Assembly: GCA_944323995.1 (NCBI GenBank)
Contig: CALUUN010000006.1
Coordinates: forward strand, 2,807 to 66,806
DNA length: 64,000 nt
Direction of reading: 5' to 3'
From: Candidatus Gastranaerophilales bacterium
GTDB lineage: Bacteria > Cyanobacteriota > Vampirovibrionia > Gastranaerophilales > Gastranaerophilaceae
Part shown: one piece after another, positions 5,341 through 27,162 of the stretch
How the letters are laid out: every line of letters begins with the position of its first letter
How positions within the stretch are numbered: position 1 is the stretch's first letter
Notes under the pieces: model-generated
The model's input: only the letters and a program-made list of their open reading frames with translations
Told to the model about the DNA's origin: nothing
The model's database searches: none
Made by a program: the position numbers and the translations under genes

Positions 5341-6808
5341 CGTTGTTCTCTCCTCTGTTAAATATCGTTCCAATATTATATTTTTGACAATAACGTTTAA
5401 GTTCTTTCATAATTACGTTTGAAAGTAAAAATACCGCAAATAGGTTCGGAACAGCTAAAAATAAAGTAAATGCATCTGATAAATTGATTATACTTTTAAA
5501 ATTCATAGCCGAGCCGACAATTATGAATATACAATATATAACCTGAAAAGTTCTCGTTGTCAATTTAGAATCTCCAAAGAGAAAATTCCAGCTCTTAATT
5601 CCGTAATAAGATCCGCAAAGCATGGTTGATAAAACAAAGCAGCTTGCCATAAAAGTTAATAAAATCGGGAAAAACGGGCAAACGCTTTCAAACGCTTTTG
5701 AAGTCAATTCAATTCCTGCAAGTCCGGTTGACTGCTGATAAACTCCGGACACCACAATAACAAAAGCAGTTGCGGAACCGACGATTACCGTATCAACAAA
5801 CGGTTGAAGCATGGCGATAAAAGCCTGAGCCGCGGGTTTGCTTGTTTTGACTGCGGAAAACGCAATAGGCGCCGTGCCCAGTCCGGCTTCGTTTGCAAAC
5901 ATTGCGCGCCGGAATCCCCAGAGCATGCAGGCGAACATGCCGCCTGTTAAGGCCTGAGGTTTAAAGGCTTCTTTTATTATAAGCATTATTGTGTGCGGAA
6001 TATGTCCTATGTGCATAAGACAAATTATAAAAGCCGAAAATACGTATAAAGTACACATAACAGGAGTTACTTTTGAGGTAAATTTTCCGATGGCTTTAAT
6101 TCCGCCGATAATTGTGACATAAGTGATTACGGCGACAATGAGCCCTAAAAGCCAGCTTCTGCCGTCAAAAAAGCTGCTGCTGCCGCCTGTTACTTCGGTA
6201 ATCTGTGCGGTCATTGCGTTAATCTGGAACAAATTCCAGCCGCCGATCATTGCAAAAATACAGCATACAGCATAGATTTTTGCAAGATAAGGCGCGAAAG
6301 GTTTTATCCAGGGAGCTTTTAAGCCGCCGAGTATGTAATACATGGGGCCTCCGGCAACAGTGCCGTCATTGTTTACTTTTCTGAATTTTATACCGAGGAG
6401 CACTTCGGCAAATTTAAGCGCCATTGAGAAAAACCCCGCCAACACCATCCAGAAGATTACTCCCGGCCCGCCGATTGAAACCGCCGCCGCAGAACCTGCC
6501 ACGTTGCCTATTCCGGCTGAAGCCGATATTGTGGCGGTCAGTGCCTGAAATGATGAAACTTCACCTTTCTTTTTGCGTTTTATTGTATCGTCATGTTTAT
6601 ATTTGTTAAGAATTAAGTTAAGCCCGTGTTTAAATCCCCAGATGCCGATAAAGCGCATTCTGAATGTAAAATAGAACGCCGCAGCCATTAAAAGCGCGAC
6701 AAGAAGCTGAACTTCAACGCCATTAATGTTTACGGAGTAAAATATTATCCCTGAAATCCTGTCGGCAATAGGAGATAACAGGCTGTCAATTGCATTATCC
6801 AAATTCAT
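5303..6808 (-). CDS. alanine/glycine:cation (sodium) symporter, AGCS family
   Basis: 501 aa and multi-pass. Conserved AGCS block GEVSSFQALTATISASAGIGNVAGSAAAVSIGGPGVIFWMVLAGFF. Confidence 0.85.
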   Translation of the reverse strand: MNLDNAIDSLLSPIADRISGIIFYSVNINGVEVQLLVALLMAAAFYFTFRMRFIGIWGFKHGLNLILNKYKHDDTIKRKKKGEVSSFQALTATISASAGIGNVAGSAAAVSIGGPGVIFWMVLAGFFSMALKFAEVLLGIKFRKVNNDGTVAGGPMYYILGGLKAPWIKPFAPYLAKIYAVCCIFAMIGGWNLFQINAMTAQITEVTGGSSSFFDGRSWLLGLIVAVITYVTIIGGIKAIGKFTSKVTPVMCTLYVFSAFIICLMHIGHIPHTIMLIIKEAFKPQALTGGMFACMLWGFRRAMFANEAGLGTAPIAFSAVKTSKPAAQAFIAMLQPFVDTVIVGSATAFVIVVSGVYQQSTGLAGIELTSKAFESVCPFFPILLTFMASCFVLSTMLCGSYYGIKSWNFLFGDSKLTTRTFQVIYCIFIIVGSAMNFKSIINLSDAFTLFLAVPNLFAVFLLSNVIMKELKRYCQKYNIGTIFNRGENNDDEKRMPEHCGI

Positions 6809-6835
6809 TCTTTAATTATACTATAAATAAAACTA

Positions 6836-6864
6836 TTTACAAAAATCAAAAAATCTGCTATATT
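6836..6864 (+). promoter_or_regulatory. sigma-70-type promoter of pilin-like gene copy 1
   Basis: TTTACA (6836-6841), a 17-nt spacer, then TATATT (6859-6864). The same architecture occurs at 25820-25848. Confidence 0.6.
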
Positions 6865-7092
6865 AAAACAGTAGTACGACATAAGAACAACGAAAGGGGC
6901 TAAAAGTATGATGAATAGTGGATTTCAGCCTAAGGGGGTACTTCTTTAAGCTCTCACCGTGCGGGTTTCGGGGTATTTTGGAGTAAAGCGTTAAGCAAAA
7001 GCACCGCAGAGAGTGCATTTGCAGACTCGGTAAATTGCAGCGATTATGCGTCCTGTCATTGCGAGGAGCGAAGCGACGTCGCAATCGCAAGG
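6865..7092 (+). promoter_or_regulatory. long conserved 5' leader (copy 1) with mini-ORF 6908-6949 and a G5 tract
   Basis: 6856-7038 aligns to 25840-26029 with 5 substitutions and one 6-nt indel by my alignment. A palindromic repeat insertion lies at 7039-7102. Confidence 0.55.
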
Positions 7093-8253
7093 TTGGTAAA
7101 ATGCAACGACAATGCGATTACTACGTCGAATGCTGCGCATTCTCCTCGTAATGACAAGACTGTAAAAAGGAGCGTCGCAATCGCAAAACCGATAAAATGT
7201 GGTAGTAAGCGCAAAAAGGCCGCCTTCACTTTAGCGGAAGTATTGATAACCTTAGCAATTATCGGAATAGTCGCAGCACTGACAATCCCGACACTAGTGC
7301 AGAATTTCCAGCAAGATGCATGGGATACAGCATCTGAAGTATTCCAAAGAAAACTTGAAGAATCGTTAAAGGTTATGAATGTTCAGGGAACCTTAGCAGG
7401 CTATACAACAACAGAAGCATTTGTTGATGAACTTTCTAAACATATTAAGATAACAAGAATATGCGATAACGATGATATTACAACATGCTTTGCAGATAAA
7501 GTTACATGGGGAACAGAGAATGAAGAAGTAGCGATGGCGGATGTAAAAAGAGCATCACACTTCGGACAAGATAGCTGGGGAACAAATACTGTAGGAGTGC
7601 AGTTTGCAAACGGAGTAAATGCAGTATTAGCATATAACCCCGAGTGCGTACAGAACCAGTTTAGTAATCAAATAACAGGAACAAGCTGCTTGGCAATATT
7701 GTATGACGTAGACGGATTTAAGAATCCAAATACACAGAATAAAGATTTAAGAAGTATAAACGTATCAAGTTTAGGCGGAAGTTCATGTTCATTTGAAGTA
7801 GACGGAATATGTTTCGGAACACTTTTCCAACCGACAGCATTAACAGCAGCAGATTGTAATGCAAACAAAGACAAATACGGTATACAAACCTGTAGAACAA
7901 CAGATGACGATTTCTGGGGCGGCGCAATGAAAGCATGTGCAGATCAAGGAAAGCGATTACCGACGGACAGTGAGCTATTAGCATTAGCAAATGATTTATA
8001 CGGTAAAGACATGTCAGGTGGAGACGATGATTTAGTCGAAGGTACCATGGATGAAGACAAAGCAAGCTCATACGGCTTCACTCTCACTGACCTAGGTGGC
8101 GGAATCAGCGGCTTCTACCTGTGGTCCGGTCAGGAGACGGACGCTCGCGACGCGCACGCGCGCGCATTCGGCTCCGTGGGCACGGGCTGGCTCTCGAATG
8201 GCGACAGAGACGGCTCCGTCCCGGGCTTCTGGGCGGTTTGCGTAGGTGAATAG
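7093..8253 (+). CDS. pilin-like protein (prepilin-type N-terminal methylation-like motif) with DUF1566/C-type-lectin-like C-terminal domain and VR-like tail, copy 1
   Basis: KKAAFTLAEVLITLAIIGIVAALTIPTL. The C-terminal domain reads WGGAMKACADQGKRLPTDSELLALAND...FYLWSGQE...AVCVGE. The start is uncertain: the track uses TTG 7093, and an in-frame ATC at 7180 lies 7 nt after AAGGAG (7167-7172). Confidence 0.75.
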   Translation: MVKCNDNAITTSNAAHSPRNDKTVKRSVAIAKPIKCGSKRKKAAFTLAEVLITLAIIGIVAALTIPTLVQNFQQDAWDTASEVFQRKLEESLKVMNVQGTLAGYTTTEAFVDELSKHIKITRICDNDDITTCFADKVTWGTENEEVAMADVKRASHFGQDSWGTNTVGVQFANGVNAVLAYNPECVQNQFSNQITGTSCLAILYDVDGFKNPNTQNKDLRSINVSSLGGSSCSFEVDGICFGTLFQPTALTAADCNANKDKYGIQTCRTTDDDFWGGAMKACADQGKRLPTDSELLALANDLYGKDMSGGDDDLVEGTMDEDKASSYGFTLTDLGGGISGFYLWSGQETDARDAHARAFGSVGTGWLSNGDRDGSVPGFWAVCVGE

Positions 8254-25819: not shown

Positions 25820-25848
25820 TTGCCAAAATTCAAAAAAAATGCTATATT
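25820..25848 (+). promoter_or_regulatory. sigma-70-type promoter of pilin-like gene copy 2
   Basis: TTGCCA (25820-25825), a 17-nt spacer, then TATATT (25843-25848). Confidence 0.6.
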
Positions 25849-26127
25849 AAAACAGTAGTACGACACAAGAGCAACGAAAGGGGCTAAAAGTATGATGAAT
25901 AGTGGATTTCAGCCTAAATGGGGGGGGGTACTTCTTTAAGCTCTCACCGTGCGGGTTTCGGGGTATTTTGGAGTAAAGCGATAAGCAAAAGCACCGCGCA
26001 GAGTGCATTTGCAGACTCGGTAAATTGCAACGATAATGCGATTACTACGTCGAATGCTGCGCATTCTCCTCGTAATGACAAGGGATACAACCCTCTACCT
26101 TTGGGAGAGGGTGGCACGCAGTGCCGG
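25849..26127 (+). promoter_or_regulatory. long conserved 5' leader (copy 2) with mini-ORF 25892-25939, a G9 tract (25920-25928) and palindromic repeats
   Basis: Near-identical to 6865-7038. It continues with the element aatgcgattactacgtcgaatgctgcgcattctcctcgtaatgacaag, which is shared with 7113-7158. Confidence 0.55.
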
Positions 26128-27162
26128 GTGAGGGTCAAAAAGGCCGCCTTTACTCTTGCGGAAGTCCTGATAACTCTTGCGATTATAGGAATAGTCGCAG
26201 CATTAACAATCCCGACGTTAATTCAGAATTATCAAGAAAGAGCATGGAACACAGCATCACAGGTATTCCAGAGAAAACTCGGCGAAGCATTAAGGGTTAT
26301 GAATGTTCAGGGAACCTTAGCAGGTTATACAACAACAGAAGCGTTTGTTGATGAATTATCTAAACATATCAAGATAACAAGAATATGTGATAACGATGAT
26401 ATTACAACATGCTTTTCTGATACCGTAACCTGGGGTGATGAAGAAGTTGATATGTCTAAAGTTAAAAAAGCAAAAAACTTCGGACAAAACGACTGGGATA
26501 CAAACACGGTAGCAGTACAGTTTGCTAATGGCGTTAACGGCGTAATAGCATACAATCCGGATTGCAGACAGAACCAATTCAGTAATGATGTAATAACAGT
26601 AGGAGAAACCGGAATAGGCACAGATTGTCTTGCAATATTATATGACGTAGACGGATTTAAGAACCCTAATACCGAAGGTAAAGATTTAAAGAATCTAAAC
26701 GTAACAAGTTTAGCAGGCAGCAACTGTGCAATAGAACTAAGTGACGGAACATGCTTTACCGCACCATTCTATCCAACAGCAGTAACAAAAGCAGAATGCG
26801 ACCAATTAGTAGCAGAGGGTTATCCGATAAAAGAGTGTTATCACGAAAGTGACCGCTGGGCCGGCGCAGTAAAAGCATGCCATGATATGGGCTCAAGTTT
26901 ACCGAGTGATACAGAACTGATGAAACTTGCAGAAGAGTTATATAAAGACGCAAGCGGGGCGTCACTCACAGACAACAGAAATAACGACCTTGCAGTATCA
27001 ATGGGATTTATCTCCTCTCCCGGCAGTCCGTTTTACCTGTGGTCGAGTGAGGAGTACAGCAAGTACTACGCGTACTACCGCTACTTCAACTCCGCGCACA
27101 CGTACCGGAACTACAGCAGCCGCATCAACAGCAGCAATCAGGCGGTGTGCTTATGTGATTAA
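26128..27162 (+). CDS. pilin-like protein with DUF1566/C-type-lectin-like C-terminal domain and VR-like tail, copy 2
   Basis: The in-frame GTG at 26128 gives MRVKKAAFTLAEVLITLAIIGIVAALTIPTL. The C-terminal domain reads WAGAVKACHDMGSSLPSDTELMKLAEELY...FYLWSSEE...AVCLCD. The track ORF extends to ATG 25918 through the leader. Confidence 0.75.
   Translation: MRVKKAAFTLAEVLITLAIIGIVAALTIPTLIQNYQERAWNTASQVFQRKLGEALRVMNVQGTLAGYTTTEAFVDELSKHIKITRICDNDDITTCFSDTVTWGDEEVDMSKVKKAKNFGQNDWDTNTVAVQFANGVNGVIAYNPDCRQNQFSNDVITVGETGIGTDCLAILYDVDGFKNPNTEGKDLKNLNVTSLAGSNCAIELSDGTCFTAPFYPTAVTKAECDQLVAEGYPIKECYHESDRWAGAVKACHDMGSSLPSDTELMKLAEELYKDASGASLTDNRNNDLAVSMGFISSPGSPFYLWSSEEYSKYYAYYRYFNSAHTYRNYSSRINSSNQAVCLCD

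Follow-up and report, generated by a model that had tools for sequence, protein, structure and literature searches.

The window analyzed here is a 64,000-nt stretch of DNA (contig C6, positions 2807 to 66806) from the genome of an uncultured gut bacterium of the Gastranaerophilales (Melainabacteria), assembled as 1.75 Mb in 35 contigs with a GC content of 39% (G000; C-numbers denote its contigs). The window carries on its forward strand two pilin-like genes with nearly identical leaders, referred to below as copy A (6836 onward) and its twin, copy B (25820 onward), each of which contains a run of G residues close to a start codon. An initial annotation of the window had reported that 6856-7038 and 25840-26029 differ by five substitutions and one 6-nt indel. 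This count was reproduced by alignment, the indel being of the ATGGGG type (at 6934 in copy A and 25918 in copy B), and it holds from the −35 box to 7035 and 26028, a similarity far beyond chance. The two leaders are the 5' expression module of the largest pilin-like gene subfamily of this genome, here called class 1, so that the near-identity first described for two genes stands but its restriction to two copies does not, about 18 being present genome-wide.

Each leader follows a good promoter, as had been noted. In copy A (6836-6864), the −35 element TTTACA (6836-6841) and the −10 element TATATT (6859-6864) are 17 nt apart and accompanied by a TG extension (6856-6857); copy B (25820-25848) has TTGCCA, the same spacing, TG, and TATATT. 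If these promoters are used as their sequences suggest, transcription would start some 7 nt past TATATT, near 6871 in copy A and 25855 in copy B. The 5' untranslated region (UTR; 6865-6907 in copy A) contains the Shine-Dalgarno (SD) sequence AAAGGGG (6893-6899 in copy A, 25877-25883 in copy B), followed in both copies after 8 nt by ATGATG (ATG1), the predicted site of initiation. The ATG1 frames are the mini-open reading frames (mini-ORFs) located previously, at 6908-6949 (MMNSGFQPKGVLL, ending at TAA 6947-6949) and 25892-25939 (MMNSGFQPKWGGVLL), of 13 or 15 codons. The ATG1 frame of copy A terminates there because the length of its G run (G5, 6934-6938), a 6-nt deletion allele of the family's ATG plus G9, places the pilin in the −1 frame. 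In copy B, a second start codon, ATG2 (25918-25920), overlaps a run of nine G (G9, 25920-25928), the two together spanning 25918-25928. This run is a homopolymer tract by a threshold of about 7 nt or more in a 5' coding region or promoter. The mini-ORF ends three codons beyond the tract, which in copy B is 17 nt after ATG2.

The reading frame of the pilin relative to its start codons is decided by the length of this tract, with an early stop in the out-of-frame states. Throughout class 1, the SD-driven ATGATG frame enters G9 and stops three codons on, with the pilin frame shifted by one base; relative to the pilin, ATG1 has the +1 register when the tract is G9 or G5 and is in frame when it is G6, G7, or G10. 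In copy B, the start codon in frame with the pilin would be ATG2 at G9, ATG1 at G10 or G7, and a GTG (aGTGGATTTC) at G8. The mini-ORF is therefore better read as the true SD-driven start of the pre-pilin, cut short by the wrong tract length. The earlier proposal of a regulatory leader peptide was right about the existence of the mini-ORF but not about a separate peptide, as G6, G7, and G10 alleles fuse the ATG1 frame to the pilin. Gene calling is affected as well. The ORF calls for the window genes run from TTG 7093 to 8253 and from ATG 25918 to 27162; TTG 7093 is merely the first in-frame start remaining with the G5 allele, and alleles of the same locus have been called in public records at lengths of 365 to 448 amino acids (aa), depending on the tract. 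The annotated start codons of this pilin-like family are unreliable and systematically mis-called.

Most of what had been described as a leader of about 185 nt is, on the evidence of its frames, translated sequence. The leader-peptide frame of copy A is open from 6934 to 7224, up to the predicted cleavage between Ala (7222-7224) and Phe (7225-7227), with 98% identity among 13 paralogs over its first 57 nt. That of copy B (25918-26148) runs to the same Ala-Phe junction (Phe 26149-26151) and includes the in-frame repeat modules AITTSNAAHSPRNDK and GYNPLPLGEGGTQCRVRV. In all 14 copies with downstream sequence, the frame is open from the tract into G or A followed by FTLAEVL, and the stretch from tract to prepilin motif, summed over 31 loci (3994 nt), contains only 4 stops when read in the pilin frame, compared with 130 and 81 in the two alternative frames. 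The short forms, six in number, have the sequence MGGGTSLSSHRAGFGVF[WR]SKG/FTLAEVLITLAIIGIVAAL (the slash marking the cleavage site), and the long forms, to which both window copies belong, contain extra modules, all in frame (ALSKSTAESAFADS..., CNDNAITTSNAAHSPRNDK, GYNPLPLGEGGTQCRVRV, CHCEERSDVAIA). The class-1 sequence RAGFGVFWSKG/FTL resembles a duplicated relic of a cleavage site.

The predicted mature proteins, beginning with FTLAEVLITLAIIGIVAAL in copy A (7225-8253) and encoded by 26149-27162 in copy B, both match the Pfam family N_methyl (PF07963; E 1.9e-6 and 1.1e-5), and the motif A/FTLAEVLITLAIIGIVAAL has the prepilin form of G or A before F-T-L-x-E and a hydrophobic helix. The DUF1566-like part of the label given to these genes was not reproduced, no Pfam domain beyond N_methyl being found at E up to 0.01. 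A prepilin peptidase gene (Peptidase_A24, above cut-off) lies at C5:16329-16718 within a 338-aa open frame. Counted from ATG1 or ATG2, short-form leaders measure 20-30 aa, and those of the long forms, both window copies among them, reach 75 to about 150 aa and fall outside the range of about 6-30 aa that precedes the cleavage site of type IV prepilins. Among the proteins of class 2, another leader class, those at the locus orthologous to C1:167723 in other assemblies carry Pfam DUF6613 (PF20318) after the N_methyl motif.

A sequence search of the window's own assembly returned 25 module matches, of which 8 are complete and internal; the others are halves at contig ends because the assembler broke within the repeat. 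The module thus precedes about 18 genes, each of them type IV pilin-like. Its order is constant: a σ70-type promoter, a 5' UTR of about 37 nt with the SD sequence, ATGATG and nine codons, the poly-G tract, and a stop-free leader frame leading to the cleavage motif. Homology among all copies starts exactly at the −35 box, upstream of which the flanks are unrelated (about 46% identical), and segmental duplication is ruled out by this boundary. The possibility that the whole module is a mobile promoter element resembling a miniature inverted-repeat transposable element was also considered and is ruled out by its 3' boundary, which is an in-frame junction with the mature pilin. An inverted-repeat scan of copy A (6800-7260, allowing up to 120 nt between arms, not aimed at terminal repeats or target-site duplications) found only the internal palindromic repeats within the long-form inserts. 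Contigs C31 (2.7 kb, 66.5% GC) and C32-C35 (27-34% GC, including C34 at 154 kb) depart from the roughly 39% of the rest and may represent contamination, or else a further replicon or a phage that was binned together with this genome.

The module is one example of a much wider design. G/C runs of 7 nt or longer number 45 in the genome, and about 40 of these sit 9-14 codons past an SD sequence and ATG, upstream of a prepilin ORF, and the tract-bearing leaders fall into at least six unrelated leader classes. The same layout of SD, ATG, tract, and open frame recurs with differing sequence in one diverged copy in the host genome and in three congeneric genomes, and with unrelated sequences at 20 of 20 loci sampled in another three genomes, of which two belong to other genera. 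When the 151 genomes of the order were searched for a tract of at least G8 followed after 20-300 nt by FTLAEV, 71 were positive, nearly all in one family, and a control with the pattern reversed gave 0 matches.

Several further observations concern this wider family. Across the whole genome, 79 prepilin-type motifs ([GAS]F[TS]LxE...) were counted, with a G tract upstream of only about 40% of them; a second, non-switchable set of pilin-like genes therefore exists. Two identical class-6 leaders (MSENLIYKS-G10, both in frame and hence ON) at C19:20737 and C19:24963, 4.2 kb apart, suggest that a pilin-like locus was recently duplicated in tandem. A short motif following the tract recurs across leader classes and species (for example CTCCTCTA[AG]GTAG and AGCTCTCAC ... 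GGGTTT[CT]); it has stops in both non-pilin frames, and in the pilin frame it encodes S-P-L or S-L-S ... (R)AGF.

Variation in tract length was observed at orthologous loci, which were identified in other metagenome assemblies by exact-protein look-ups of neighboring housekeeping genes and have identical flanks. At the copy A locus, ten other assemblies carry ATG-G9 (six), G5 (two), or G6 (two), the last in frame with ATG1. The G6 allele translates in frame as MMNSGFQPKGGTSLSSHRAG... (MMNSGFQPKGGTSLSS...), and in it the mini-ORF is therefore fused to the pilin. Of the other class-1 loci, the one next to FlhA is G9 in the host and G10 in another sample, where ATG1 is in frame; the one next to S30AE is G9 in the host and G8 elsewhere; and a third is G7, again with ATG1 in frame, in two assemblies. 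In class 2, where G11 and G14 are the in-frame lengths, one locus shows G10, G11, G12, G13, and G14 and a second shows G10, G11, and G12. The glyA-adjacent copy of class 6 has G9 (off), G10 (on), or an interrupted tract (GGAG7), depending on the sample. Between-strain differences in tract length within identical flanks are thus found for classes 1, 2, and 6 and for the copy A locus. Two other loci gave less: the SNF2-like neighbor of C11:7318 had no exact protein match elsewhere, and the glycosyltransferase neighbor of C1:173213 led only to short contigs ending inside the module.

These polymorphisms bear on a reading in which no change in DNA is needed, full-length pilin being made at a fixed low level mainly because RNA polymerase adds one G or because ribosomes slip by −1 on G GGG GGG. 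Class 1 is uniform at G9, and the relation in which one further G is needed prevails, being that of every class-1 and class-3 locus and of 13 of the 20 loci in the three other genomes, as that reading would have it. Yet the same loci vary between assemblies (G10-G14 in class 2, G7-G10 in class 1), which proves change at the DNA level, and class 2, alone among the classes, is mostly one G too long (G12). Folding detected no stable downstream structure able to stimulate frameshifting, and with both out-of-frame states and in-frame alleles occurring, the loci do not have the makeup of a programmed −1 frameshift. The analogous ON/OFF switch of a Bifidobacterium breve pilus G tract is reported to arise by replication slippage (PMC9187656). 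We consider expression mainly through RNA-level or ribosomal slippage quite unlikely.

The uniformity of class 1 admits another reading, in which ATG2 is the real start codon, G9 the normal selected ON state, and the mini-ORF an upstream overlapping ORF acting through termination-reinitiation or tuning, other tract lengths being rare and mostly deleterious slips. Every class-1 copy with ATG2 in the host genome carries G9. Among 58 class-1 protein clusters in a large protein collection, 48 start at ATG2 (G9), 6 at the GTG (G8), and 3 at ATG1, of which one has G7, one G10, and one a "locked" tract that is interrupted. On 15 contigs the copy B protein occurred with its start at ATG2, and the position of the mini-ORF stop relative to ATG2 is within reach of reinitiation. 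Nevertheless, ATG2 has no SD sequence (only GGA at −14), in contrast with the AAAGGGG 8 nt from ATG1, and alleles fused to ATG1 exist, including the locked one. Moreover, other leader classes and species share the design without an in-frame start at the tract, and there too the state one G short is the commonest; ATG2 is therefore not needed to explain the dominance of G9. A reading with ATG2 as the real start appears improbable to us, although G9 may be weakly expressed instead of fully OFF, or may even be the main state.

The conserved leader had also been proposed to be a cis-regulatory RNA, a riboswitch or attenuator controlling the pilin genes, and the presence of about 150 highly conserved nt upstream of more divergent coding sequence is what such an element would predict. 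In the whole window, Rfam gave no match at gathering score except a tRNA-Ser elsewhere, and at E up to 10 over 6780-7260 it gave three noise matches only, the best with an E-value of 2.8. The folding energy of the leader is no better than that of shuffled sequence (z = +0.52), and RNAalifold identified 0 compensatory pairs among nine copies, in which only 19 columns are variable. The class-1 leader sequence was not found in 21 congeneric species sampled, which have other sequences with the same ORF and tract layout, and the region after the tract is mostly translated, being kept open in the pilin frame. The proposal of a structured RNA is thus without support from Rfam, folding energy, or compensatory change, and it is by far the least probable of the explanations considered here.

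A search for the leader in 40 relatives matched only its first 30 nt or so, at strong housekeeping promoters such as that of the HU gene, and not homologous leaders. The sole cross-species DNA matches to the module (relatives G012, G014, G018, and G007) are to the promoter of an HU-like DNA-binding protein gene (TTGCCA, 17 nt, TGCTATAAT). In sequence, then, the promoters of the pilin genes are like the strongest housekeeping promoters of the lineage. In other species, purA synteny led to no tract-bearing pilin gene.

Why the module is so nearly identical among scattered genes is better answered by the profile of identity along the class-1 paralogs. Mean pairwise identity is 46% in the unique upstream flank, 92% in the promoter, UTR, and ATG1 frame, 98% in the first 44 nt after the tract, 79% in the long-form inserts, 80% in mature codons 1-30, 63% in the gene body, and 55% in the C-terminal tail. 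Over mature codons 1-30 the protein is almost invariant, and 978 synonymous codon differences stand against 164 non-synonymous ones (78 pairs), bearing out the earlier remark that the coding regions are more diverged than the leader at synonymous sites. A UTR and a peptide that is presumably discarded are five- to ten-fold less diverged than adjacent synonymous sites, and homogenization is therefore indicated. Consistent with exchange among copies, 33 of 78 pairs of informative single-nucleotide polymorphisms (SNPs) inside the module show all four gametes. At the FlhA-neighbor locus, the 5' UTR of another strain has a block of SNPs that differs from the host ortholog and looks by eye like the variant that the host carries in two truncated paralogs (C21 and C25). 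At the copy A locus, other strains keep the symporter-pilin-purA synteny, but identity of the pilin body to any host paralog varies from 99.7% down to about 78-80%. Of the explanations offered at first, ongoing gene conversion is therefore the one that these data favor, through the contrast in identity, the four-gamete SNPs, and the differing leader variants and bodies at orthologous loci. As far as sequence comparison can tell, the near-identity of the module supports concerted evolution, presumably by gene conversion or recombination between copies, and not a structured RNA.

Relative to copy B, copy A has a 66-nt in-frame insertion (7036-7101, forward strand) encoding ...CSDYASCHCEERSDVAIARLVK, which belongs to a set of nested palindromic dispersed repeats with arms at 7050-7068/7142-7160 and 7074-7089/7113-7128. 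Past this insertion, homology between the copies resumes at 7102 with a second near-identical block (7102-7158, forward strand, equivalent to 26029-26083 in copy B), an in-frame repeat module encoding CNDNAITTSNAAHSPRNDK. The long-form inserts as a whole (7036-7212, 26084-26139, and others genome-wide) are dispersed palindromic repeats, with translations such as CHCEERSDVAIA, AITTSNAAHSPRNDK, and NPLPLGEGGTQCRVRV. BLAST located 18 matches to the insert repeats inside pilin leaders, always in frame and stop-free, and 13 elsewhere in the genome. In-frame leader inserts of this type recall the Rickettsia palindromic elements within ORFs.

Taken together, these results lead us to propose, with a probability of roughly 0.7, that the class-1 module is a switch-bearing 5' cassette of pilin-like genes, in which a G tract acts as an ON/OFF frame switch and which is homogenized by concerted evolution. 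At G9 (G5 in copy A), the pilin would be one base off the ATGATG frame, and a ribosome directed by the SD sequence would halt after 13-15 codons, leaving the gene OFF or at most weakly expressed from the ATG2 that abuts the tract. Slipped-strand mispairing during replication would add or remove G residues to give G10 or G7 (G6 in the deletion allele), lengths that would join ATGATG to the pilin and turn the gene ON. Prepilin peptidase would then remove the tract and all sequence up to the cleavage site; as tract and inserts would be discarded with the leader, neither tract length nor repeats would alter the mature protein.

Several observations weigh against this proposal. Class-1 tracts are strikingly uniform, and G9, in the counts given above, could be a selected, expressed state instead of OFF; the occurrence of the copy B protein with its ATG2 start on so many contigs points the same way. 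Family-wide, the tract states are uneven: an approximate hand tally of G000, G074, G009, and G091, whose copies are not independent, gives about 35 tracts that lack one G, about 12 that have one too many, and about 6 that are in frame. Such over-representation of the state one G short, which a purely stochastic switch would not predict, may stem from a bias in mutation, from selection favoring OFF, or from slippage at the RNA level. Both MutS and MutL are intact in this genome, so that no mismatch-repair defect raises slippage, and loss of mismatch repair is ruled out as a cause of tract instability. Leaders of 28 to about 150 residues far exceed classical prepilin leaders, and their cleavage is assumed. 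Finally, the tract lengths rest on assembly consensus.

A more elaborate form of the proposal would recognize three tiers of variation: a tract serving as a three-level translational rheostat (ATG1 with its strong SD sequence at G7 or G10, ATG2 at G9, and the GTG at G8 or G11), exchange of cassettes, and a diversity-generating retroelement (DGR). Here, the preference for one G short could be RNA-level slippage giving each gene a low stochastic output, and directed gene conversion may keep the module identical over some 18 scattered loci, where it would provide the homology by which pilin bodies are exchanged from one expression site to another. We regard this scheme as conceivable, if improbable.

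To our knowledge, nothing is known of how the Gastranaerophilales, which are widespread and uncultured in human and animal guts, present their surface. Our literature search found no paper joining Gastranaerophilales with phase variation, nor did anything relevant emerge for pilins or DGRs in Melainabacteria or for phase-variable pilins in gut metagenomes. On the proposal preferred here, pilin-like proteins that can be switched individually take up about 40 loci of a 1.75-Mb genome; each locus has a strong promoter and, in a region whose product is predicted to be discarded, a slippery G run. Combinatorial surface variation would result, of a kind described so far mainly in mucosal pathogens. 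For annotation, it follows that the mini-ORFs are not small genes and that assemblies break in the module. The homogenized cassette beside synonymously diverged codons also makes this uncultured organism a clean natural setting in which to study short-tract gene conversion. The kind of switch is known, as in the pilC genes of Neisseria, and we found no report of one in this lineage. What is new is the whole module as a homogenized cassette, with its contrast to synonymous divergence quantified, the alternative start codons of class 1 in all three frames, and leader repeat insertions that are kept in frame.

The closest analogue is Neisseria pilC. In Neisseria gonorrhoeae and Neisseria meningitidis, pilC1 and pilC2 contain a homo-G tract in the region coding for the signal peptide, and frameshifts in this tract turn expression on and off independently of RecA (reviewed in PMC5354566). 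The likeness lies in a poly-G run just past the start codon, inside the cleaved-off part of a pilus-associated protein. The pilC tract is in the Sec signal peptide of a tip adhesin, whereas the tract described here is in the class III (prepilin) leader of pilin-like subunits. Here there are about 40 loci per genome instead of two, and a leader that is very long and has in-frame repeat insertions, in a non-photosynthetic relative of the cyanobacteria.

The closest multigene analogue is the opa family of Neisseria, with about 11 loci that have CTCTT repeats in the region coding for the signal peptide. It too is a dispersed family of surface proteins in which every locus, having a promoter and a leader repeat of its own, switches independently, and in which members recombine. 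The opa repeat is a pentamer and the proteins are in the outer membrane, in contrast to the homopolymer and pilin-like products found here, where a near-identical promoter, UTR, and leader module was measured against the synonymous divergence next door.

Bifidobacterium breve UCC2003 is, like the present organism, a gut commensal. Its sortase-dependent pilus clusters are reported to carry an intragenic G tract on whose replication slippage pilus expression depends, the population being mostly OFF (PMC9187656). Those pili, as far as reported, are sortase-dependent structures of a Gram-positive organism, encoded at two loci with neither a shared leader module nor a prepilin leader.

Campylobacter jejuni, which lacks mismatch repair of the MutS/MutL type, has poly-G contingency genes spread over many unrelated surface-modification genes. 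Its small AT-rich genome, tens of tracts of G8-G13 with G9 common, and setting of ON or OFF by reading frame are all reminiscent of the present case, in which, by contrast, the tracts are concentrated in one gene family and both MutS and MutL are present. The vlp and vsp lipoprotein families of Mycoplasma have highly conserved promoter, 5' UTR, and signal-peptide regions, and thus share with class 1 a conserved 5' cassette on divergent surface-protein genes, a homopolymer switch, and recombination among members. In Mycoplasma the switch is a poly-A run in the promoter spacer and the genes are clustered, whereas in the Gastranaerophilales genome the tract lies in the coding leader and the genes are scattered beside housekeeping genes.

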